IMG/VR virus record: IMGVR_UViG_3300025653_004941
Span: 1 to 25,673 of that record
Origin: a virus
Taxonomy: Duplodnaviria > Caudoviricetes
DNA: 25,673 nucleotides
Reading direction: 5' to 3' (one strand)
Of this stretch, positions 5,598-18,054 are shown one piece after another (the stretch's first letter is position 1; every line of letters starts with the position of its first letter). The position numbers were made by a program, and so were the translations under genes. Under the pieces are notes generated by a model that was not told where the DNA came from, made no database searches, and saw only the letters and a list, made by a program, of their open reading frames with translations.

Positions 5598-6335
5598 ATG
5601 ATAGACATCTTAAAAGACATCGTTAAACATACGCATGGACTGGGATTCTTGGATCTTGTCAAGATCACTGGGGACGATAAGGAAACTTCAATCGACTCAA
5701 TGGCCGAAGACAGATCTGTGATCCTACAAGGGTCTTTCCACAAGCCACAGGCAGAGATGTCTGGTACGTTTGGAATGCCTCAGATGGGCAAGTTAGACAT
5801 CCACCTGAAGTGTCCCGAGTACAAGGAGAAAGCAAACATAACTGTGTTGTCAGGTGAGAGAGCCGGGGCAACAGTTCCCACAGGAATCCATTTCGAGAAT
5901 GAAAAGGGTGACTTCAAGAACGACTACAGGTTCATGAATGCCGAGATCATCAACGAGAAACTTAAGACCGTCAAGTTCAAAGGTGTTAAGTGGGACGTTG
6001 AGATCGAACCAGGAATGGCAAGTGTGCAGAGATTCAACTTCCAGGCAACAGCAAACACAGAACACAACTCATTCGTTGTTAGGACCGAGGATGGAAACTT
6101 GATTTTCACTTTCGGTGACCAGGCATCGCATGGTGGTGAATTCGTGTTCGCAACTGACGTTAAGGGAACACTTAACAAAGGTTGGAGTTGGCCGGTAGGA
6201 CAGGTGCTACAAATACTTAAACTATCAGACTCGGCAAAGGTCACATTACACTTCTCTAACGAGGGTGCGATGCAGGTCTCCGTTGATTCGGGACTGGGCA
6301 AGTATCAATACATCATACCAGCACAGGCGCAATAA
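5598..6335 (+). CDS. Probable sliding clamp / polymerase processivity factor (gp45/PCNA-like)
   Basis: 245 aa with an alternating helix/beta pattern typical of clamps; C-terminal YQYIIPA strand; located near polB. Confidence 0.6.
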   Translation: MIDILKDIVKHTHGLGFLDLVKITGDDKETSIDSMAEDRSVILQGSFHKPQAEMSGTFGMPQMGKLDIHLKCPEYKEKANITVLSGERAGATVPTGIHFENEKGDFKNDYRFMNAEIINEKLKTVKFKGVKWDVEIEPGMASVQRFNFQATANTEHNSFVVRTEDGNLIFTFGDQASHGGEFVFATDVKGTLNKGWSWPVGQVLQILKLSDSAKVTLHFSNEGAMQVSVDSGLGKYQYIIPAQAQ

Positions 6336-7783
6336 TGACGACAGATAATAGTAAGCAGGAACACCTAGGGGAGTTGAGCAGAGACTTCGCGGTGTTCTTG
6401 CCTGCTATATCTAACTTCTACAACACGTTTATCAGCAAACAGAGAGTCACAGAAGGCAAACACATAGCCGAAGAGAGAATTCCAAAGACATTTGAAAATG
6501 GCGTGGAGTCATTGAACTTCATAAATCCAGACAAAGGTATGTTTACATACCCCACAGCACTTTACTCGGCAGGACATGCCTGCTTAAACATGGATCAAGT
6601 GAATGACCGGGATCACATGTTCGTCAACAGGGATAGAAAGTTCAGCACGATAGTGGGCGATTCAGGTGGATATCAGATAGGAAAAGGTGTCATTAAATTT
6701 GATTGGAAAGATTTTGAGGGTAACAAGGCAAACAAAGTGAGATCAGACATACTCAACTGGTTGGAACTAACAAGCGACTGGGCAATGACACTGGACGTGC
6801 CAACATGGGCGGCGGATGACCTTAACAGTCCAAAGACTGGATTGACCAGTTTCCAGGACACATTGGACGGTACCATATACAACAACAAGTTCTTCCAAAA
6901 GAACAGGTTAGGACAAACAAAATTATTGAATGTTCTACAAGGTGATGACTGGAACACAGCACAGATATGGTATGATGCTGTAAAAGATTTCGAATTCGAA
7001 GGATGGGCAATGGGTGGTATTAACATGTGTGACATGGAAGTGATGCTGAAACGTCTGATCATAATGAGAGATGAGAAGAAACTTGACGGCAAGGACTGGA
7101 TGCACGTACTTGGAACTTCGCAGATGGATTGGGGTTGTTATCTCACACAGGTTCAAAGGCAGGTTAGGAAACATATCAATCCAAACTTCACAATCAGTTT
7201 TGACAGTGCATCAGCATTCCTATCGACTGCAAATGGACTTGTTTACACACACAACTCGTTCTCTCCAGACAGGTGGTCATTCGTAATGGATAAAGCACCA
7301 GACGATAAAGCGTTGAAAGGATCCGAAATTCAATTTCCATTTGATAGTGGTGTTGGACGTAGACTGAAGATGAAAGATGTCTGTTGGTATGGTGAGAATG
7401 ACCTAAATAAAAACGGAAAGGTTGGAGCAACAAGTTGGGACAGTTTCAGTTATGTGCTGATGATGGCACACAACGTATACAACCAGATCAGAGCGATACA
7501 GATCGCAAATGATCTAAACGACATAGAATCTATGAAATACCGACCTGAGGTCAAACACTGGCGTAAAACAAAGGCAAGTGACAAGACGGATGAACCAAGC
7601 ATATATGTTCCAAGGAACATACTGTATTTCAACACGTTTGTTGAAGAAGTGTTTACAAGTGAGAAACCAATGGACGTGATCGCAGGTGCATCAAGTTATC
7701 TAGCAGACATCAGGGGCAACAGATGGGCCAGGGCAACAGGTGGTGGCAAAGGCACAAACAATTTCAGTTCTTTATTTGAATAG
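6335..7783 (+). CDS. dpdA: TGT-fold guanine transglycosylase, DpdA-like (probable DNA 7-deazaguanine insertase)
   Basis: TGT motifs in order: GDSGGYQ, MTLDVP, NVLQG, GWAMGG, MHVLG, ISFDSAS, late AHN; clustered with folE and queE. Confidence 0.75.
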   Translation: MTTDNSKQEHLGELSRDFAVFLPAISNFYNTFISKQRVTEGKHIAEERIPKTFENGVESLNFINPDKGMFTYPTALYSAGHACLNMDQVNDRDHMFVNRDRKFSTIVGDSGGYQIGKGVIKFDWKDFEGNKANKVRSDILNWLELTSDWAMTLDVPTWAADDLNSPKTGLTSFQDTLDGTIYNNKFFQKNRLGQTKLLNVLQGDDWNTAQIWYDAVKDFEFEGWAMGGINMCDMEVMLKRLIIMRDEKKLDGKDWMHVLGTSQMDWGCYLTQVQRQVRKHINPNFTISFDSASAFLSTANGLVYTHNSFSPDRWSFVMDKAPDDKALKGSEIQFPFDSGVGRRLKMKDVCWYGENDLNKNGKVGATSWDSFSYVLMMAHNVYNQIRAIQIANDLNDIESMKYRPEVKHWRKTKASDKTDEPSIYVPRNILYFNTFVEEVFTSEKPMDVIAGASSYLADIRGNRWARATGGGKGTNNFSSLFE

Positions 7784-7792
7784 GAGGACACA

Positions 7793-7996
7793 ATGAGGCT
7801 AACAAAGAGAAGAAGCAAGAAAGTTAAAAAACTCGAAGAAGAGCATCAGTATCTTGACAAAAAGGTAAAACAACTTACCAAAGACAGGCTGAAGGACCGT
7901 AGTTCAGAAAGCAAAGACGTGTTGAATAGGTTGAAAAGGATGAAATTGATCATCAAAGATGCCATCGCTAGAGCAAAGTCCACGTTGACAAAATAA
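7793..7996 (+). CDS. Small coiled-coil protein, YdcH/DUF465-like
   Basis: LEEEHQYLDKKV...LKRMKLIIKDAI pattern; AGGAGG SD. Confidence 0.6.
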   Translation: MRLTKRRSKKVKKLEEEHQYLDKKVKQLTKDRLKDRSSESKDVLNRLKRMKLIIKDAIARAKSTLTK

Positions 7997-8013
7997 CCGT
8001 TTAGTAATATAAT
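7985..8013 (+). promoter_or_regulatory. Consensus sigma70 promoter, probably giving a leaderless mRNA
   Basis: TTGACA (7985-7990), 17-nt spacer, TATAAT (8008-8013); ATG at 8019. Confidence 0.85.
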
Positions 8014-8018
8014 AAGGT

Positions 8019-8570
8019 ATGGACAGAGATTATAAAACGGGCAAGAGTGAAACTGTAGGTGTTTTTTCAGGATTAGAAGTGGAACATACCCCGGCACTTG
8101 GTAAACAAACACTTTTCTTGGCAAGGAACGATCTTACGTTTGATGACATCAAAGAACTTGCACAATCAGTGAATGCGGAAGCAATCTACTATGGAGCAAA
8201 CAGATCTTATATGCACAATCATGGCATGCAACTTTCACAAATGAAGAGATTGATAGAAGATGGTTACTATGTCACTGTCGATTACGACTACAGCATACAC
8301 AAGGAAGTCAAAGAAAAATTCAAGATGTTGTGGCAAAACGAAAAGTTTATCCCTTTCTGTTCAATAATATTTCCAAATTCCGAGGACGATGACCAACTTT
8401 GTATAAAGGTCGATGACGTTGACTTCAACAAGACCAACCCAGGTGTTTGGACCATGAGCATGGATCACTTCAAACAAACTTCAGGTTTCACTTCATGGAA
8501 GGAATACAAACAAGACGAACCAATACAGGAGAACAAATGGACACTGAGCACCAACACGATCAAGCACTAA
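8019..8570 (+). CDS. Hypothetical protein, possibly a degenerate QueE-like partial barrel without the Fe-S motif
   Basis: Clear ORF with its own promoter; VFSGLEVEHTPALGKQTLFL and LIEDGYYVTVD echo QueE segments; no CxxxCxxC. Confidence 0.55.
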   Translation: MDRDYKTGKSETVGVFSGLEVEHTPALGKQTLFLARNDLTFDDIKELAQSVNAEAIYYGANRSYMHNHGMQLSQMKRLIEDGYYVTVDYDYSIHKEVKEKFKMLWQNEKFIPFCSIIFPNSEDDDQLCIKVDDVDFNKTNPGVWTMSMDHFKQTSGFTSWKEYKQDEPIQENKWTLSTNTIKH

Positions 8571-8977
8571 AAGAACAGGCAAATAAAGGCAGTAAGATGA
8601 TATGGGTAACATTCCGTAAGGAAGGCATCCACAAGTATCCCGCGGCACTGGACGATCCAAAACTGGCGACGGGTGATGAGTATGATGTCAGTTTCCTGGG
8701 ACACCCACACAGACACATATTCCATTTCAAGGTTGCTATAGAAGTGTTCCACGATGACAGAGACATAGAATTCATACAGTTCAAGAGATGGATGGAGAAC
8801 ATGTACGCGGACGGCACGATGAAACTGGATTACAAGAGCTGTGAGATGATATCCGATGATCTATATGTGGCGATCGCAAAGAGATATCCAGGCAGGAAGA
8901 TCGAGATAGACGTGAGCGAGGATGGCGAGAATGGAAGCCACGCAGTTTACGAAAAACCAGTGATGGGTGGAATATAA
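8537..8977 (+). CDS. dpdL: QueD/PTPS-like T-fold paralog with LxxxHRHxF (DpdL-like, putative CDG decarboxylase)
   Basis: EGIH, LGHPHRHIF (8696-8722), SCE and VSED match the QueD layout but lack CxxxHGH. Start at ATG 8537 after AGGAG (8527-8531). Confidence 0.65.
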   Translation: MDTEHQHDQALKEQANKGSKMIWVTFRKEGIHKYPAALDDPKLATGDEYDVSFLGHPHRHIFHFKVAIEVFHDDRDIEFIQFKRWMENMYADGTMKLDYKSCEMISDDLYVAIAKRYPGRKIEIDVSEDGENGSHAVYEKPVMGGI

Positions 8978-9303
8978 TGAAAGAAGTACAGATCAAAGAA
9001 AAACGAGCGACCACGAGGATGGGACACCTGCCCATAGAGGGTGGTGGACTTAATGCGGGTTACGACACTGTTGACGCAGTGGCCAACATCTGCACCACGG
9101 CGGGCAACCTCGGAATGAAGTACGGCAAGGACTTCATATGGTCACACACAGGATTCAGTGATGATGATGCAATGGACGACACGATAACACTGTTAGTCAA
9201 GGACGACAAGTACGAGTCTTTCCTGCATCTGGCATTACAGAATACACACAAGATAAAACACACAAACGACGGTACAATCAAACTAATCAAGGAGAGAAGA
9301 TAA
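8977..9303 (+). CDS. Hypothetical protein
   Basis: 108 aa, TAATG-coupled on both sides; no recognisable motif. Confidence 0.7.
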
Positions 9304-9725
9304 TGGACCTAAAAGAAAGTAAAACAGCAGAAAACCTTAAAGACGCTTTCGCGGGAGAAAGCCAAGCAAACAGAAGATACCTGTACTTCGCACAGAAGGC
9401 CGACATAGAAGGAGCACCAGACGTTGCGGCGGTGTTCAGAAGCACAGCGGAAGGTGAAACAGGACACGCACACGGACACCTGGAGTACCTAGAAGAAGTT
9501 GGAGATCCAGCAACAGGTGAAAAGATGGGTGAAACAGAAGACAACCTTAAATCTGCCATCGCAGGCGAGACGCACGAGTACACAGACATGTACCCGGGCA
9601 TGGCTAGAACTGCCAGAGAAGAAGGCTTCGAGGAGATCGCTGACTGGTTCGAGACACTAGCCAAGGCCGAGAAGTCACACGCGGGTAAATTCCAGAGAAC
9701 GCTAGATGCGTACAAAGGAGCATAA
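9303..9725 (+). CDS. rbr: Rubrerythrin (short form, no rubredoxin domain)
   Basis: [21 protein letters not shown] and EKSH di-iron ligands. Confidence 0.93.
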
Positions 9726-10255
9726 TGAGAGTACCATACACTAACTTTAAAACAAGAACAGGCGACGATACTGCAATTGGCGGTTGCGGATTCATAGGCG
9801 GTGAATGGAAAGATTTAGACACAGCAGAAATTTTCGATAACAAGAAGGTCGTTGTGTTTGCACTACCCGGAGCATTCACACCAACTTGTAGTTCACAACA
9901 ACTACCAGGATACGAAGAAATGTATGATGAGTTCAAGGCACAAGGCATAGACGAAGTATATTGCTTGTCAGTAAATGATGCATTTGTAATGAACGCATGG
10001 TTCAAGAATCAGGACATTAAAAAAGTCAAACCACTTGGTGATGGCGAAGGCGTTTTCACACAAGGAGCAGGGTTCCTTGTAAGCAAACCAGCACAGGGGT
10101 TTGGCATGAGATCTTGGAGATACTCAATGCTAGTTGACAATGGCGAGATAATCAAACAGTTTGTTGAAGAAGGACAAAACAACTCAAGTGATGACAATGA
10201 TCCGTTTGAAGTGTCAGACGCAAAAACAATGCTTGATTTTGTAAAAAGTAGATAA
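9725..10255 (+). CDS. Peroxiredoxin, Prx5-type
   Basis: [10 protein letters not shown] active site, [15 protein letters not shown]. Confidence 0.93.
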
Positions 10256-10575
10256 TGTATAAACCACTGCCAGACGGATTAACTATAAAAGATTCTGAAT
10301 TGCAAGGATTAGGATTATTTGCTACGCAAGGTTTCGATGCTGATGTGGTATTAGGAATAGTACACATCAAGAATAAAAATTTTCCACATGGAGCAATCAG
10401 AACGGCCTTGGGTGCATTTTACAACCATTCAGACAACCCCAACTGTAAGAATGTTGCAGGTTTTTGGCATCAATTGCCTGTGAAGTACCTAATTACAACT
10501 AAACCCATTAAAGAAGGAGAAGAACTAACAGCGGCGTACACTTTGTACAAAGATTTTAATGACAAGTGGGAATAG
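10255..10575 (+). CDS. Minimal SET-domain protein (lysine methyltransferase fold)
   Basis: SELQGLGLFAT, FYNHSDNPN, IKEGEELTAAY. Confidence 0.85.
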   Translation: MYKPLPDGLTIKDSELQGLGLFATQGFDADVVLGIVHIKNKNFPHGAIRTALGAFYNHSDNPNCKNVAGFWHQLPVKYLITTKPIKEGEELTAAYTLYKDFNDKWE

Positions 10576-10587
10576 ATCTGTTATACT
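10559..10587 (+). promoter_or_regulatory. sigma70 extended -10 promoter, probably leaderless
   Basis: ATGACA (10559-10564), 17-nt spacer, TG-n-TATACT (10582-10587); ATG at 10594; no SD. Confidence 0.7.
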
Positions 10588-10593
10588 GATACT

Positions 10594-11763
10594 ATGAAAA
10601 TATTTTACATGGGCCTAGAGCCATACGAAGGCAGATACACATTACAGTTGCAGGACTGGACTGAACGTGCATACAAGAAAAGAGGAATAGATTACGTTGT
10701 GGTACCAGGTACGACAATAGACGACACAAAAGCAATCAGTGTAGGACAGGTACTTGACGCACACGGAAGATCATACTTTGGTATGAGCCAGATGATGAAT
10801 CTTGTACAGATGATGCGTAATGGTGAGGTAACGAAGAACGACATCATATTCTTTGAAGACATGTTCCAGCCAGGCATGGAATCATTGCCTTACATATTGA
10901 ATCAAGTAGAAGCGAAACACAGACCAACGATATACCTGAGATGTCTTGCACAGGCCATAGACCCAGATGACTTCGTGCATGTATGGGGCATGAGCAAGTG
11001 GATGAGCATGTATGAACAGATGTGCAACGAAATTCCCAATGTCAACATACTTGCAACTAACGAAGAGATGGTGGCACACATGAGGATAGCAAATTGGTCA
11101 GCACCAATATACAACATATCAGGATTGAGCTTTGGCAAGGAAGAAGTACAGAGTAGAGTACCAGACAGGAAGCCTTTCATAGAAAGGAAACAGAGAGTGA
11201 TTTTTGGAGCGAGATGGGATCAAGAGAAACAGCCACAGTTCTACATGGAACTGGCCGCTAAATTCAAGGAGACACATCCGGATGTTGAATTCGCGATATG
11301 TCAAGGTGGACCTCTGAGATCCAACAACGACTACTACGTGAAAGAAGCAAAATATCTTGAGAAGCAAGGCATATTGACAATACATGAGAACTTGAAGAAG
11401 AACGAGTACTACGAACTACTCGCAGACTCGAGGGTGATGTTCAACTGTGCTTTACAGGACTGGGTGTCAAACACAGTGAGTGAAGCAGACGCAATGGGTT
11501 GCAACACCCTGTTTCCGGCATACAGATCATTCCCGGAGACGTTCGCAAATGACCACACGAGGATGTATGTTCCATGGTCGCAACAAGACGCAATGGAAAA
11601 ACTAGAAGTATTATTAAGCAAACCATCCCCTAGTATAGGCAAGATTTCTGACTGGACCGACGGTACCATAGACAGGATGATTGACATTATGACAGGCAAG
11701 GGAGAACAATGGAGAAGAGATGGAAGACACTACAGGACACCAGTTTCAGAAGCCAAGTATTAA
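10594..11763 (+). CDS. GT-B fold (GT4-like) glycosyltransferase
   Basis: VIFGARWDQEKQP, EYYELLADSRV, and QDWVSNTVSEA (a variant of the ExxGxxxxEA motif). Confidence 0.75.
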   Translation: MKIFYMGLEPYEGRYTLQLQDWTERAYKKRGIDYVVVPGTTIDDTKAISVGQVLDAHGRSYFGMSQMMNLVQMMRNGEVTKNDIIFFEDMFQPGMESLPYILNQVEAKHRPTIYLRCLAQAIDPDDFVHVWGMSKWMSMYEQMCNEIPNVNILATNEEMVAHMRIANWSAPIYNISGLSFGKEEVQSRVPDRKPFIERKQRVIFGARWDQEKQPQFYMELAAKFKETHPDVEFAICQGGPLRSNNDYYVKEAKYLEKQGILTIHENLKKNEYYELLADSRVMFNCALQDWVSNTVSEADAMGCNTLFPAYRSFPETFANDHTRMYVPWSQQDAMEKLEVLLSKPSPSIGKISDWTDGTIDRMIDIMTGKGEQWRRDGRHYRTPVSEAKY

Positions 11764-12751
11764 AGGCGTAAGTAAAGCAGTGCTAGTCACGGGCGGTGCC
11801 GGTTATGTTGGCTCACACACGTGTAAACTGCTTGCCATTAATGGATTCACACCAGTCACGGTAGATAGGCACTTCAGAGAAGGTCTGAAGTCATTTGGAC
11901 CAAACTACAATTTAAACCTCCCACAGGAGATGGACAGGATTGACGAGATCGTCAAAAGGTACAACATTACCAGTTGCATACATTTCGCGGGTAGCACCAG
12001 TGTACCTGAGAGTGTTGCCAATCCTTCATTGTATTACAAGAACAATTTGATCATGACCATATCATTACTGGACAAACTGATCGAGTGTGGGGTCAAAACT
12101 TTCGTTTACAGTTCCAGTGCGGCCACTTACGGTGATCCAGGAATGCAGTTGGCCATGGAGTCAGACGTTGCCAATCCAATCAGTGCATACGGTGGTAGCA
12201 AACTGATGATAGAGATGGTGTGTAAGGATTACCTGAGGGCATATGGATTGTCCAGTGTGGGTTTGAGATATTTCAATGCCGCTGGTGCAGATCCAGAAGG
12301 CGAAGTTGGAGAGCTACGAGAGAAAGAGACACACATCATACCACTGGCCATAACGGCCGCCAAGCAAGGCAAAACATTCAAGATATTTGGTGACAAGTAT
12401 CCAACAGATGACGGAACATGTGTAAGGGATTACGTGCATGTGATGGATTTGGCAGACGCACACATAAAAGCATTGAATCACGCTTCAAAGAATCCAGTGG
12501 CGGAGGTGTTCAACTTGGGTTCAGGAGAACCTTCTTCCAACAAGCAGTTGATAGAAGCAGTGCAGAAACACGCAGGTGAGATGAAGGTGGAGATGCATGA
12601 CAACAGACCTGGAGATCCAGCATATCTAGTGGCGGACACCAGCAAGGTGAAGGAAATTTTAGAGTGGGAGCCCACACAGAGCAGTCTTGACAACGTGGTG
12701 GCAACTGCTGTACAATGGTATAACAAGACGCACAAAAAGGATATACAATAA
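11720..12751 (+). CDS. galE: UDP-glucose 4-epimerase
   Basis: VTGGAGYVGSH, HFAG, SSSAATYG, YGGSK, LRYFNAAG, DGTCVRDYVHV. Confidence 0.93.
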   Translation: MEDTTGHQFQKPSIKGVSKAVLVTGGAGYVGSHTCKLLAINGFTPVTVDRHFREGLKSFGPNYNLNLPQEMDRIDEIVKRYNITSCIHFAGSTSVPESVANPSLYYKNNLIMTISLLDKLIECGVKTFVYSSSAATYGDPGMQLAMESDVANPISAYGGSKLMIEMVCKDYLRAYGLSSVGLRYFNAAGADPEGEVGELREKETHIIPLAITAAKQGKTFKIFGDKYPTDDGTCVRDYVHVMDLADAHIKALNHASKNPVAEVFNLGSGEPSSNKQLIEAVQKHAGEMKVEMHDNRPGDPAYLVADTSKVKEILEWEPTQSSLDNVVATAVQWYNKTHKKDIQ

Positions 12752-13464
12752 TGAGTGAAGACATTTTAAAAGACAGTTGGGTACCAGAAGGCCCTGTTAG
12801 TAAAAAGATCAAAGACAGGATAAAGAAAGCAGGCAAGAGATTCCATTCCAATGACAACATCTCTGAATTCATAGAAGAAGGAGAGATGGATCTGCTACAG
12901 GCAGAGGTACAGGAGAAACTGCAGGGTGTGTTAGACAGTCTTGTGATCGACACAGAAAACGATCACAACACACAGGAGACTGCGAAGCGTGTGGCCAAGA
13001 TGTACATCAGAGAAACTTTTGGTGGTAGATTCAAGCCAGCACCGAGGGTCACAAGTTTTCCCAACATGGGGTACAAGAGCATGTACACCAGTGGACCAAT
13101 ATCGATCAGGTCAACCTGTGCCCACCACTTCCAGAACATTGTGGGTAGAGCATGGGTAGGTATCATTCCAAATGGTGAGGTGATAGGATTGAGTAAATTC
13201 AACAGGATAGTACATCACATAGTGGAGAGACCCCAGATACAGGAAGAAATGACAACACAGATTGCCGAAGAATTGAAGAAATACGCAAAGACAGAAAATC
13301 TTGCAGTGGTAGTAAAAGCAGAACACCATTGTATGACACACAGAGGTGTGAGAGAACATGAGTCGGACATGACAACTGCAATCATGTTGGGTGCTTTCAA
13401 AGAAGATCCTGCTACAAGGGATGAATTCTACAAAATCTGTATGAGCATGAAGGGTCATGACTAA
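12751..13464 (+). CDS. folE: GTP cyclohydrolase I
   Basis: ETAKRVAKMY, STCAHH, GLSKFNR, RPQIQE, AEHHCMTHRG. Confidence 0.95.
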   Translation: MSEDILKDSWVPEGPVSKKIKDRIKKAGKRFHSNDNISEFIEEGEMDLLQAEVQEKLQGVLDSLVIDTENDHNTQETAKRVAKMYIRETFGGRFKPAPRVTSFPNMGYKSMYTSGPISIRSTCAHHFQNIVGRAWVGIIPNGEVIGLSKFNRIVHHIVERPQIQEEMTTQIAEELKKYAKTENLAVVVKAEHHCMTHRGVREHESDMTTAIMLGAFKEDPATRDEFYKICMSMKGHD

Positions 13465-13762
13465 GAAGACTAAAGAACAAATTAAAAAACAACAAGCAAA
13501 CATGCAATCTGACAACATGGAAATGGCCGGTTGGAGTGAAGGACTAACAACAGGTGGCGTTGTAGAGACAGCGACAGTGGATTTTGATTCACCGGATACT
13601 GGCTTCTCATACAGTTATGGAGATCTTGGCGACATGGGACAGTTGGATCTGTTTGACGAGATGGACTTGAGGGACAAGTACCCTGCATTGAACCAGGCAT
13701 GGGAACACTACCAGAGTGTGTTAGAAGTTTGTAAAACAAAGGAAAAAGAAGATGAGAATTAA
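13457..13762 (+). CDS. Acidic hypothetical protein with a QLDLF motif
   Basis: 101 aa; acidic, probably disordered middle; C-terminal helix KYPALNQAWEHY; overlaps both neighbours. Confidence 0.65.
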   Translation: MTKKTKEQIKKQQANMQSDNMEMAGWSEGLTTGGVVETATVDFDSPDTGFSYSYGDLGDMGQLDLFDEMDLRDKYPALNQAWEHYQSVLEVCKTKEKEDEN

Positions 13763-14801
13763 TACGGAACCTAAACTCAATTTCGAGGACGTGTTGCTAC
13801 AGCCAAAACGTTCAACACTGTCTAGCAGGCGAGATGTTGACATGACTCGTAAGTTCACGTTCCGCAATTCAGGTAAGGTCATGGATTTCCTTCCCATATT
13901 CGCAAGTAACATGGATGGTGTTGGCACATTCTCAATGGCCAAGGAAATGCAGAAGCACAAGATGATGACCGTTATAACAAAGACCACAACACCAGAACAA
14001 TGGAAAGAGGCCGCAGGCACAGGATTGAGAATGCAGTCAGTGTCAGTGTGTACGGGAACCAATGTTATGTGGGATCCGGAAGCACCTGATTGGGCGACCA
14101 TGAATAAAGTTTTAGAAATGTTCCCAGATGTCAAGATGATCACTGTTGATGTTGCAAACGCATATCATCAGAACATGGTGGACTTCATTAAAAAAGTAAG
14201 AGACGAATATCCAGACAAAGTCATCATAGCAGGAAACGTGGTCACACCTGAGATGACAGAAGAATTGATTATAAATGGTGCTGACGTGGTCAAGATAGGT
14301 ATTGGTCCAGGTTCTGTATGCACCACAAGAACAATGACTGGCGTTGGTGTACCACAGTTCTCGGCGATAGTTGACTGTTCAGATGCCGCGAACGGTGTTG
14401 GCGGACACATAATGGCAGACGGTGGTTGTGTGTATCCAGGAGACATAGCAAAAGCATTTGGTGGAGGAGCCCACATGGTCATGATAGGTGGTATGTTGGC
14501 AGGACACGACGAGTCAGAACAGCCAGTTGTTGATGGCAAGATAGAATTCTATGGCATGAGCTCAGACAGGGCTCGTGAGAAACACGGCAAACGCAAGGAC
14601 GGATACAGAGGCAACGAGGGTAGATTGATATCTTTGCCTCATCGTGGACCGGTTGGACCAACCTTGGAAGACATACTGGGTGGAGTCAGGAGTGCCTGCA
14701 CATACATAGGTGCGAGAAGACTCAAAGACATGGCCAAGTGTGCAAGTTTCGTCACAACCAACAACGTGATCAACAGGGTCTATGAGCGATACACCAAATA
14801 A
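13752..14801 (+). CDS. guaC: GMP reductase
   Basis: DVLLQPKRSTLSSR, ASNMDGVG, VDVANAY, KIGIGPGSVCTTR, ADGGC, FYGMSS; no CBS domains. Confidence 0.93.
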   Translation: MRINTEPKLNFEDVLLQPKRSTLSSRRDVDMTRKFTFRNSGKVMDFLPIFASNMDGVGTFSMAKEMQKHKMMTVITKTTTPEQWKEAAGTGLRMQSVSVCTGTNVMWDPEAPDWATMNKVLEMFPDVKMITVDVANAYHQNMVDFIKKVRDEYPDKVIIAGNVVTPEMTEELIINGADVVKIGIGPGSVCTTRTMTGVGVPQFSAIVDCSDAANGVGGHIMADGGCVYPGDIAKAFGGGAHMVMIGGMLAGHDESEQPVVDGKIEFYGMSSDRAREKHGKRKDGYRGNEGRLISLPHRGPVGPTLEDILGGVRSACTYIGARRLKDMAKCASFVTTNNVINRVYERYTK

Positions 14802-15114
14802 CATAGAGCCAATCAAGGAGAAACTGGACGACAAGATCAAGAAGTTGAATTCTTCAAGGGTGATCAAGAAAGTGACACCCAAGGGAGACCTGTCTTGGTA
14901 CGTGAAATGGGTTTCGGTGTTCTTTATATTAGTAGCGACAGCGGCCAGGAGTGTGGGCACAATACCACACATCGACATGTGGTTTGGTCTAGTAGGCACA
15001 GTGGGTTGGGCATGGGTTGGATACCTATGGCACGACAGGGCACTGTTGTTCCTGAATGCAATACTGGTCACACTATTGATCATAGGATTAATGAATTATT
15101 ATTTTGGGATATGA
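14782..15114 (+). CDS. Small membrane protein (about 3 TM)
   Basis: WYVKW followed by hydrophobic helices and WHDRAL. Confidence 0.7.
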   Translation: MSDTPNNIEPIKEKLDDKIKKLNSSRVIKKVTPKGDLSWYVKWVSVFFILVATAARSVGTIPHIDMWFGLVGTVGWAWVGYLWHDRALLFLNAILVTLLIIGLMNYYFGI

Positions 15115-15575
15115 GCGAAGAAGTTAAGAAGAATTATTTCACCACAGGACAGATGCGTAACGCACTGATCCAGATCGAAGACAAGATGGTGCACAGCAAC
15201 TGGATGCCAAGCATCATACTGGGCATCAACAGGGGTGGTTGCATACCTGGTGTGTACCTGTCGCACAGACTCAAGACAGCTCATGAAGTACTTGACGTGA
15301 GACTTAGGGATCACACCGCCAAACCTGACCTGCGTGTTTTAGAAAAGGCATTCGCATTCCAGAAGAAGATATTGATCATAGACGACATCAACGATTCCGG
15401 GGCAACGTTCCAGTACATACTGGACAACTTCGGCAAACGTGAAGACAGGATAAGATTCGCCGCACTGATCAACAACAAACCCAGCCGGGTCAAAGTAGAT
15501 TACCACGGTTACGAGATAAACAAGGACGAAGTGCCTAGTTGGATCGTATTCCCATGGGAAGAGTGGGACAAGTAG
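15111..15575 (+). CDS. Type I purine phosphoribosyltransferase (xanthine-guanine PRT-like)
   Basis: LGINRGG, PRPP loop ILIIDDINDSGAT, WIVFPWE; start set at the ATGA overlap at 15111. Confidence 0.88.
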   Translation: MSEEVKKNYFTTGQMRNALIQIEDKMVHSNWMPSIILGINRGGCIPGVYLSHRLKTAHEVLDVRLRDHTAKPDLRVLEKAFAFQKKILIIDDINDSGATFQYILDNFGKREDRIRFAALINNKPSRVKVDYHGYEINKDEVPSWIVFPWEEWDK

Positions 15576-15650: not shown

Positions 15651-16259
15651 ATGTTCAAAAACGTAGACAAATCAATGCTGATGAAACTGGTGTTACTACA
15701 TGTTGTAGTGATCACAGTTTCAAATGCGTTAGTGGCCATTCCAGTTGAAATATTTGGAATTAAATTAACGTGGGCGGCATTCACATTCCCATTAGTTGTT
15801 ATAGCAACTGACTTGACTGTAAGACTTTTGGGCAAACACATAGCCAGAGCCACAATCGCGGCGGCATATCCATTAGCAATAATTGGATCCATCGCAGTAG
15901 TGTTGGCGGAAGGCGCACCACAATCGGTTGCATTAAGGATTGGTTTCGCAAGTGCCACTGCTTACGCGATCGGCACTTTGCTTGACGTGTATGTATTCCA
16001 GTACATCAGGGAATCAAAGACGTACGGCAAGAACTGGTGGATGGCTCCAGCGGTATCAACAATCGCGGCCAACATAATCGACACTTACACATTCTTTGCA
16101 GTTGCATTTAACAACAGCGCCGACGAGTACATGGCGGCGAACTGGGTTGAGATCGCGGGATCGCAAGTGGTGTTGAAAATCATAGTGGGATTGGTTGTGT
16201 TCTTACCAGCATACGGATTATTGCTGAACAGACTACAGAAGACCTACAAACTCAAATAA
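15651..16259 (+). CDS. yhhQ: Queuosine-precursor (preQ0/preQ1) transporter, VUT family
   Basis: SNALV, TWAAFTFP, ATDLTVRLLG, LDVYVF, IDTYTFFAVAF; about 6 TM. Confidence 0.9.
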   Translation: MFKNVDKSMLMKLVLLHVVVITVSNALVAIPVEIFGIKLTWAAFTFPLVVIATDLTVRLLGKHIARATIAAAYPLAIIGSIAVVLAEGAPQSVALRIGFASATAYAIGTLLDVYVFQYIRESKTYGKNWWMAPAVSTIAANIIDTYTFFAVAFNNSADEYMAANWVEIAGSQVVLKIIVGLVVFLPAYGLLLNRLQKTYKLK

Positions 16260-16341: not shown

Positions 16342-16737
16342 ATGTCAAACAAAGCAGGAAAAATCTGGGGCGAAACAGAACTTATATTAGCAAACAATTC
16401 ACTGGAGTTCCACAGGATAGATTACAAGAAAGGTGGGGTGTGCTCCAAGCACCTGCACGAATGGAAGTGGAACGGGTTCTATGTGATGAGCGGACAGATG
16501 AAGATCCGTGTGTGGCAGAAGGACTACGACCTAGTAGACGAAACAATATTGAATCCAGGAGACTTCACTGCTGTGAAGCCTGGTTTATATCATTCATTCG
16601 AAGGACTGGAGGACGGAGTCGCCTTTGAACTTTACTGGGCGAATTTCTCCGTGCATGATATTAAAAGAGAATCGGTCGGACATCTCAAAGATGTTGACAA
16701 TAAAGTTGTGAGGCTGGACAAGAACAAGAAAAAATAA
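16342..16737 (+). CDS. Cupin-domain protein (sugar isomerase-like)
   Basis: KIWG, CSKHLH...FYVMSG, LNPGDFTAVKPGLYHSF cupin motifs. Confidence 0.8.
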   Translation: MSNKAGKIWGETELILANNSLEFHRIDYKKGGVCSKHLHEWKWNGFYVMSGQMKIRVWQKDYDLVDETILNPGDFTAVKPGLYHSFEGLEDGVAFELYWANFSVHDIKRESVGHLKDVDNKVVRLDKNKKK

Positions 16738-16738
16738 G

Positions 16739-17164
16739 GTGAACATATACACAATATACGCTGATCACAAAGAAAACATCTCGGCTCTCAATTTTGTTAG
16801 AAAGATGAGTTTATTCCTGGACGCCCTTGTGCTACACAAAAAAATGGTGTGTTACAGGATCACCAGGATGAAACTGGGATTCAGATCCATGGACTTACCA
16901 GAATTCAGGATCGATATGGAGTTCGAATCAATGCAACAACTCGACGACGCCATGGAAATTACCATGTCAGATAAGGGTGTTGACAAGACACACGTTGGAT
17001 TCAATCAATACGTGGACAAGGACACAATACAGCATTTCCTTTACCGTGATTATCCAGATGATCTAAATAAACCAAAGTTGACTGAAAAACAAAATCCATA
17101 TACAATAGACGAAGTAGTCAAGGCAACAAAAAATATAGATCCGGAAATATGGAACAAGGGTTAG
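16739..17164 (+). CDS. Hypothetical protein (possible alpha+beta barrel, DUF6614-like)
   Basis: GTG start right after the cupin stop; YRITRMKLG...EFRIDMEF...QLDDA. Confidence 0.6.
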   Translation: MNIYTIYADHKENISALNFVRKMSLFLDALVLHKKMVCYRITRMKLGFRSMDLPEFRIDMEFESMQQLDDAMEITMSDKGVDKTHVGFNQYVDKDTIQHFLYRDYPDDLNKPKLTEKQNPYTIDEVVKATKNIDPEIWNKG

Positions 17165-18054
17165 AAAAAAAATATTACTATTCAGAGATATTCCACAGCA
17201 TACAAGGCGAAGGACACTACACAGGTGTTCCGACCGCTTGGATAAGATTCTTCTTGTGCAACTTACAGTGTAGTGGATTTGGACAAATCGATCCAACTGA
17301 TCCAAGCACGTATGAATTGCCATTCGAAGACTTTGATGTTGATAGTGTGCAAAGGGTAGAAGACTTACCAGTGTGGGAGAAAGGTTGCGATTCCAGTTAC
17401 ACATGGGCAAAGAAGTTCAAGAAACTGATGGGATATGAAACACCCACTGTACTAGCAAACAAGATCGTAGATATATTAAAGACAGACACAAATGCACATG
17501 GATTGTTCTTACATCCAAACTCTAGGCAACATCAACACCTATGTTTCACTGGTGGGGAACCATTGATGATCACAGGACAGGCCGCGAGTATGGGCATATA
17601 CAGAGAACTCAAAAAACAAGCAAACCTGCCAAGTTCGATGACGTTTGAGACCAACGGCACACAGAAACTTACAGGTCCATTCAAACAGTGGGTCAAGGAC
17701 ATACCGGAGGAGATATTCTTCAGTGTGAGTCCAAAACTATTCACAGTATCAGGCGAGAAAACGGAAAAAGCAATCAAGCCAGGGAACGTGAAGGAATACG
17801 CAGAGTGTAGCAACAGAGGGCAACTGAAATTCGTTGTTGGATCAGAAAGACGACAGTGGGAAGAACTAGAGAACACCGTGAACAAATTCAGAGACGCCGG
17901 CGTGGATTGGCCAGTATGGATAATGCCCACTGGTGCAAGGGAAGAAGAGCAGACCGCAACCGCTGGTAAGGTGGCGGAGGAGGCATTCAAGAGAGGATAC
18001 AATGTTTCTGCAAGGGTTCACGTGTACCTTTTTGGTAATGCAATTGGCACATAA
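17149..18054 (+). CDS. queE: 7-carboxy-7-deazaguanine synthase (radical SAM)
   Basis: SEIFHSIQGEG, IRFFLCNLQC...GCDS, FTGGEP, FETNGT, SVSPK, LKFVV, IMP, RVH. Confidence 0.92.
   Translation: MEQGLEKKYYYSEIFHSIQGEGHYTGVPTAWIRFFLCNLQCSGFGQIDPTDPSTYELPFEDFDVDSVQRVEDLPVWEKGCDSSYTWAKKFKKLMGYETPTVLANKIVDILKTDTNAHGLFLHPNSRQHQHLCFTGGEPLMITGQAASMGIYRELKKQANLPSSMTFETNGTQKLTGPFKQWVKDIPEEIFFSVSPKLFTVSGEKTEKAIKPGNVKEYAECSNRGQLKFVVGSERRQWEELENTVNKFRDAGVDWPVWIMPTGAREEEQTATAGKVAEEAFKRGYNVSARVHVYLFGNAIGT

Follow-up and report, generated by a model that had tools for sequence, protein, structure and literature searches.

A glycosyltransferase (GT) encoded in the window, the whole 25,673-nt stretch of DNA that we analyzed and the full extent of record IMGVR_UViG_3300025653_004941, probably takes part in making a sugar-bearing deazaguanine in DNA, whichever order the steps follow. 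Our favored reading, to which we give a probability of about 0.52 from sequence comparison, is that GT is a QTMAN-related, GT4-type enzyme that would add a sugar to 7-deazaguanine after DpdA has inserted the base into phage DNA. In the pathway we propose, FolE, QueD (encoded outside the window), and QueE would make CDG from GTP by established chemistry, DpdL would likely decarboxylate CDG to 7-deazaguanine (DG), and a long DpdA would, as its homology suggests, put DG or CDG in place of some of the guanines. GT, whose fold and donor motifs are observed and from which we predict the reaction, would then transfer a sugar from an NDP-sugar with retention, and the adjacent GalE, judging from co-occurrence, likely supplies UDP-Gal or UDP-GalNAc in the window's clade. 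The expected product is a galacto-configured sugar on a purine analogue at a subset of G positions, and it would likely shield the DNA against nucleases or glycosylases to which plain deazaguanine DNA is open. As the point of attachment, the 7-position, which lies in the major groove (in dDG C7 itself, in dCDG the carboxylate), is slightly preferred to the 2-amino group; glycosylation at the 2-amino group of 7-deazapurines is known in nature from huimycin (PMC7439116; also bioRxiv 10.64898/2026.04.15.718813, with no mention of phage).

The lengths of relatives (118–197 kb) and their rated completeness (29–55%) imply a jumbo phage as the source, with a genome of at least about 350 kb, and gene order resembles that of the PA5oct group. 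Two pathway genes in the window, dpdA and dpdL, had gone unnamed in an earlier note on this DNA. The first (6335–7783, plus strand) encodes a predicted DNA guanine transglycosylase of the long, DpdA2-like, PA5oct type, assigned by profile match and orthology: it matches the ACP17-type DpdA2 profile (HHalign 96%, E 4.8e-9), matches phiST DpdA3 weakly (16%), and is the orthologue of Paride_0115 (E 3.9e-191). The PA5oct counterpart of Paride_0115 is listed as DpdA3 in Data S1 of Cui et al. (PMC10516641); by profile, the PA5oct-type DpdA lies nearer to DpdA2 than to its listed class and may merit a subfamily of its own. The DpdA2 profile had no sequence match in the PDB. The second gene, dpdL (8567–8977, plus), encodes a QueD paralogue homologous to the DpdL proteins of ACP17 and phiST, with LxxxHRHxF and SCE conserved. 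Decarboxylation of CDG by DpdL was put forward by Cui et al. 2023 (PMC10516641) as a proposal, not as a validated activity.

The remaining pathway genes are folE, encoding GTP cyclohydrolase I (12,751–13,464, plus; Pfam E 7.7e-47), and queE, encoding CDG synthase (17,149–18,054, plus; PHROG QueE-like, E 8.9e-54). We found queD in three of five partial relatives and none in the window, while queC was absent from the window's ORFs, from the complete Paride, ACP17, and BUCT-ZZ01 genomes, and from a close relative rated 55% complete. Immediately before dpdL lies a gene for a 183-aa α/β protein of unassigned function (8019–8570, plus; confident predicted model, pLDDT 90.3). It is a frequent, not an obligatory, partner, present in 119 of the 190 GT loci having both flanks and not found in the BUDD or Phosso genomes. 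Its model has no significant PDB match (QueE at rank 41, E 0.27), and the protein belongs to no named Atlas family and has no profile match to the one QueE tested; a QueE-like origin is thus an unsupported guess. A sporadic partner is a yhhQ-like (Vut_1) membrane protein gene (15,651–16,259, plus; Pfam E 6.2e-26), found within 7 kb in 48 of 171 GT loci. Between dpdL and GT lie rubrerythrin, peroxiredoxin, and small SET-domain genes (9303–10,575) that vary among relatives, and GMP reductase-like and purine phosphoribosyltransferase genes at 13,752–15,575 possibly recycle the guanine released by DpdA. The earlier note had placed a sugar-isomerase-like cupin before queE. Between the cupin gene (16,342–16,737) and queE stands a DUF6614 gene; the best PHROG match of the cupin is annotated as cysteine dioxygenase, and none of our searches supports a sugar isomerase. 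We also rejected the cupin as a core part of the pathway: it occurs in 46 of 171 GT loci, of which 45 belong to the high-scoring class, and it is confined to close relatives.

The earlier description of the GT gene cluster was largely accurate in its geometry. GT (10,594–11,763, plus, 389 aa) overlaps galE (11,720–12,751, plus, 343 aa) by 44 nt, as the ORF coordinates bear out, and galE meets folE at a TAATG junction, as the sequence confirms. That GT heads a transcript, also claimed, stands in part. A promoter-like site with an extended −10 (ATGACA-17-TATACT; 10,559–10,587, plus) precedes GT, and co-transcription of GT, galE, and folE is likely from the sequence, there being no plus-strand terminator-like site between GT and folE; a stronger site within galE, 5′ of folE (TTGACA-18-TACAAT, 11/12; 12,687–12,716, plus), means that folE may also have its own promoter. 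The site before GT ends 6 nt from the ATG and so predicts a leaderless GT mRNA; a comparable −10 box stands at that distance in 13 of 78 distinct upstream sequences of the GT clade. A promoter-like site with a perfect σ70 consensus (TTGACA-17-TATAAT, 12/12; 7985–8013, plus) precedes the 183-aa gene and dpdL. Promoter-like sites in the region number 27, no excess over the 24.9 ± 5.2 of shuffled sequences. Contigs of four metatranscriptomes cover parts of GT, galE, and folE, with one crossing each junction, but such contigs reveal neither the strand nor whether one transcript spans the genes and could derive from DNA, and we did not count them as evidence.

Linkage of GT to dpdL and dpdA supports a deazaguanine acceptor. 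GT matched 17 phage records, and the five representative regions examined all carry dpdL together with folE or queE. Among 28 records with DpdL, 18 also have GT; six of the other ten are whole cultured genomes in which a profile search detected no GT (3/3 controls outside the profile were detected), and these six carry phiST-type DpdA3. We extended the comparison to locus sets made up of the best 80 matches per scan, whose members are related to one another, so that the counts overstate independence, yet span several unrelated lineages. GT was present in 76 of the best 80 of 592 dpdL-selected loci, and in 61/61 where at least 4 kb lay downstream. In the best 80 of 319 DpdA2-selected loci, 78 of them new, dpdL and GT occurred together in 62 of the 63 having at least 2.5 kb downstream, the sole exception carrying a different GT and a QueC-like gene. 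Starting from full-length GT loci flanked by 3 kb in each direction, we found dpdL in 188 of 190; one of the other two has dpdL elsewhere on the contig, and the second is from PhiXhv-15, where GT adjoins genes for Gat-QueC and a PIG-L deacetylase. At dpdL loci with phiST-type DpdA3, a small negative set, GT was found in 0/13 (six whole cultured genomes and seven contig loci, several of these under 6 kb). Cultured carriers of GT and dpdL comprise the PA5oct group, ACP17, BUDD, BCSR5, BUCT-ZZ01, and Phosso, and chromosomes of Magnetospirillum and Rhizobiales, as well as a prophage of a Bacteroides bin, also carry GT, dpdL, and dpdA together, reordered. The family is large, with 813 clusters at 50% identity (E up to 1e-30). 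The earlier note had set co-occurrence with dpdL and dpdA beforehand as a test, with homologs unlinked to deazapurine genes as the outcome that would count against it; the homologs are linked.

This distribution bears on two other explanations of the gene. One is a chance position in the cluster, the true acceptor for GT and GalE being a virion protein, the host surface, or a hydroxymethyl-pyrimidine. GT4 acceptors are diverse, jumbo phages have clusters of surface-glycan glycosyltransferases (PMC7824862), and the window covers a minor part of the genome, so that the lack of any hmC or hmU synthesis gene among its 29 ORFs (Pfam and PHROG searches), which agrees with the earlier note, applies to that part. 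The linkage nevertheless holds across myoviruses, jumbo phages, a prophage, and chromosomal elements despite reordered genes, and none of the homologue regions examined has a capsule, LPS, or hydroxymethyl-pyrimidine context; we regard a chance position as highly improbable. The other explanation makes GT an accessory that helps long-DpdA systems to form deazaguanine, for instance by way of a short-lived glycosyl ester that promotes decarboxylation or processing, with plain dDG as the final base. Consistent with this, the tightest link of GT is to dpdL, and DpdL activity has not been reconstituted, with further partners suspected (PMC10516641). Against it, phiST makes dDG from a genome without GT, and the clade-specific galE, second glycosyltransferases, and PIG-L deacetylases suggest that it matters which sugar the product carries. 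An accessory role therefore seems very unlikely to us.

The kinship of GT points to the same class of acceptor. GT has a GT-B architecture (Pfam Glycos_transf_1, E 4e-7), and its predicted model (pLDDT 88.6, pTM 0.87) has two Rossmann domains; its fold matches are to retaining GT4 enzymes, MshA and BshA among them. These fold matches do not bear out the analogy to T-even glucosyltransferases drawn in the earlier note. GT carries an R-x4-K diphosphate motif (R207 and K212, both invariant) and D289-X7-E297, a variant of E-X7-E that places it in the D-X7-E (“QDW”) clade, clades being assigned by motif and tree. Across 84 members, E9, R14, Y15, and T16 at the acceptor end and R207, E211, and K212 at the donor end are invariant. 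As a proxy for QTMAN, we used bacterial proteins bearing the Pfam domain QTMAN_N (PF12038). The GT profile matched one gene per genome in 23/23 genomes with QTMAN_N, always the QTMAN_N-bearing gene, compared with 1/30 genomes without it, where the match was weak. Profile alignment of GT to the QTMAN-like set gave 98.6% (HHalign, E 7.4e-16 over 290 columns). Twenty-one of the 23 QTMAN-like proteins scored 27–54 bits against GT and the other two 37 and 38 in separate scoring, while generic GT4 proteins reached at most 16.5 bits (30 proteins from two genomes, 18 of them reported). Such QTMAN_N glycosyltransferases (loci L298–L320) were present in 16/201 and 7/151 sampled bacterial genomes. The likeness lies mostly in the donor half, with HMM matches covering profile positions 147–376 at most, and QTMAN_N has no match in the window's GT and is absent among the 25 of 42 Pfam families listed for the 84 members. 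We conclude from these alignments that QTMAN/GTDC1 is the most specific cellular relative of GT and, given the donor-half bias and the undetected QTMAN_N, that GT is a relative of QTMAN and not a member.

Because QTMAN mannosylates queuosine in tRNA (PMC11755703), GT might work in the same way, attaching a sugar to the queuosine of host or phage tRNA, or to a precursor of it, and thereby steering translation or blocking anticodon nucleases. The family relationship is in keeping with this, as is the fact that folE, queE, and yhhQ are also queuosine-pathway genes. Yet the acceptor half aligns only weakly with QTMAN_N, the Paride, ACP17, and BUCT-ZZ01 genomes have no queC, the fixed partners of GT are dpdL and dpdA, and one GT carrier has restriction-resistant DNA; we find a tRNA substrate quite unlikely. 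The resistant carrier is PA5oct, whose DNA withstands five restriction enzymes, which was interpreted as a modified G (PMC12191111). PA5oct also has five Mom-like enzymes (PMC7824862), and the resistance, which plain dDG or these enzymes could also explain, is not specific to a sugared base. Taken together, the dpdL/dpdA linkage, the absence of GT from phiST-type plain-dDG systems, and the QTMAN kinship lend strong comparative support to the earlier proposal that the acceptor is a 7-deazaguanine derivative.

GT could also glycosylate free DG or CDG first, with the long DpdA then inserting the sugar-bearing base, for a glycosylated purine of the same type made in reverse order. GT adjoins dpdL even where dpdA lies 170 kb away (Phosso), its nearest solved folds are small-molecule GT4 enzymes, and HuiG acts on a free deazapurine (PMC7439116). 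The protein is also acidic (pI 5.6, net charge −8, family median −9, on computed net charge only), as are the DpdA proteins, so the basic DNA-binding character sought in the earlier note finds no support. ACP17 dpdL and dpdA without GT gave no dDG in E. coli, but the phiST pair, naturally without GT, failed the same test (PMC10516641), so the ACP17 failure says little. Also against this order, QTMAN acts after insertion. Transglycosylases, moreover, require that the 2-amino group be free, and their usual substrates are small bases. We consider glycosylation of the free base unlikely, and continue to favor addition of the sugar after DpdA has acted. Against that favored order stand the acidity of GT, the restriction of its QTMAN likeness mainly to the donor half, and the nature of the acceptor: decarboxylated 7-deazaguanine has no hydroxyl, while QTMAN acts on queuosine.

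The identity of the sugar is addressed by galE. The encoded protein (Pfam Epimerase, E 6e-50; best PDB match UDP-glucose 4-epimerase, E 8.5e-79) matches solved GalE over its full length, with GxxGxxG, the catalytic Ser, and YxxxK intact. A Leu occupies what we take to be the GalE gatekeeper position (100/119), which does not separate Gal from GalNAc. In the D-X7-E clade, which includes the window, 100 of 113 loci have galE no more than 3.5 kb away, compared with 0 of 85 with the E-type motif; at 70% identity the figures were 6/10 and 0/33. The D-X7-E clade forms one branch (support 1.0 on four representatives) and occurs with both long-DpdA types, and because it is one branch, the galE association is close to a single gain. 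Coupling of galE to folE, seen in the earlier note, is accordingly not a general feature: galE accompanies one GT clade only, is absent in ACP17 (whose GT has the E-type motif), BUDD, and BCSR5, and lies 42 kb away in BUCT-ZZ01, whose GT belongs to the QDW clade at 68% identity and is accompanied by a second glycosyltransferase. The restriction of galE to one clade suggests a donor switch, and GalE is likely a donor module that supplies the GT of that clade. A second glycosyltransferase shows a similar bias, occurring in 25 of 109 D-X7-E loci and in 0 of 81 others, which suggests a disaccharide product.

Several further loci extend these arrangements. Within the galE clade, many aquatic T4-like phages have a second GT4-like gene with folE on one side and dpdA2 on the other (L001:9004–10347, L189:8622–9995), and Paride_0119 (L002:9800–10318) is a 172-aa N-terminal epimerase fragment near dpdL and GT. 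In Xanthomonas phage PhiXhv-15 (L093:6747–9981), genes for Gat-QueC, a PIG-L deacetylase, and a divergent GT-family member are adjacent, with a DpdA-like gene elsewhere and no dpdL found; an amino-sugar archaeosine variant is possible. Another contig (L255:10001–15013) has dpdA2 followed by a second-type glycosyltransferase, an inositol-phosphate synthase-like gene (by eye), and a QueC-like gene, and no dpdL. The reordered GT, dpdL, and dpdA of Magnetospirillum and Rhizobiales (L279:8823–12905, L284:4349–10387) are possibly a cellular or mobile-element version. Two Methanosarcinales loci (L289:5819–11367, L290:2880–8470) have queD, queE, folE, and dpdL, no match to dpdA or GT, and adjoining apparent methyltransferase and ABC transporter genes, and are possibly a deazapurine metabolite cluster.

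To our knowledge, the sugar-bearing bases of phage DNA are all pyrimidines. None of the deazaguanine bases listed by Cui et al. 2023 bears a sugar (PMC10516641), and this was the only paper found to pair “DpdL” with “deazaguanine.” Our literature search, with subscription reviews and the original QTMAN paper outside its scope, found no paper that links a glycosyltransferase to dpdL or reports a sugar-bearing deazaguanine in DNA, and no modified nucleoside measurement for any GT-carrying phage; an earlier prediction is possible. We rate it an even chance that glycosylated 7-deazaguanines are a widespread and overlooked kind of DNA base in long-DpdA/DpdL phages, made by a viral sister family of the animal tRNA enzyme QTMAN whose sugar modules can be exchanged (a host donor; GalE for galacto sugars; PIG-L deacetylase for amino sugars; a second glycosyltransferase for disaccharides; a Gat-QueC variant), the product here possibly being a C7 C-galactoside. 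If so, a glycosylated purine analogue would open a new branch of DNA hypermodification, phage DNA chemistry would be linked to the family that glycosylates tRNA queuosine, and the modified G of PA5oct jumbo phages would gain a name. The GT family is large, and carriers are already in culture.

Among characterized systems, the DpdL-type dDG system of phiST (FolE, QueD, QueE, DpdL, and DpdA3; PMC10516641) is similar to the window in having folE, queE, a dpdL with LxxxHRHxF, and a dpdA, and the complete relatives searched have no queC. The phiST system has no such GT, however, the base measured in its DNA is unsugared dDG in place of dG, and the window's DpdA is long and DpdA2-like. QTMAN/GTDC1 shares the donor-half motifs of GT and acts on a 7-deazaguanine derivative in nucleic acid (PMC11755703), but QTMAN_N is not detected in GT, the acceptor-half motifs differ, the partner genes point to DNA, and galE points to a UDP-galacto donor where QTMAN uses mannose. 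The α- and β-glucosyltransferases of T-even phages, which act on hmC, share with GT the GT-B fold and the predicted post-replicative addition of sugar to DNA. They have no sequence match to GT, whose predicted acceptor is a purine analogue, and no T4 glucosyltransferase is among the PDB fold matches listed to rank 50, DNA α-glucosyltransferase models standing at ranks 26 and 43 among viral models. HuiG, finally, is a glycosyltransferase encoded alongside folE, queD, and queE, and it places GlcNAc on a 7-deazapurine at the 2-amino group (PMC7439116), but its product is a secreted small molecule that needs QueC and a methyltransferase, and there is no DpdA. We conclude that the proposed glycosylated-deazaguanine system is well supported by comparative genomics and predicted in its chemistry.
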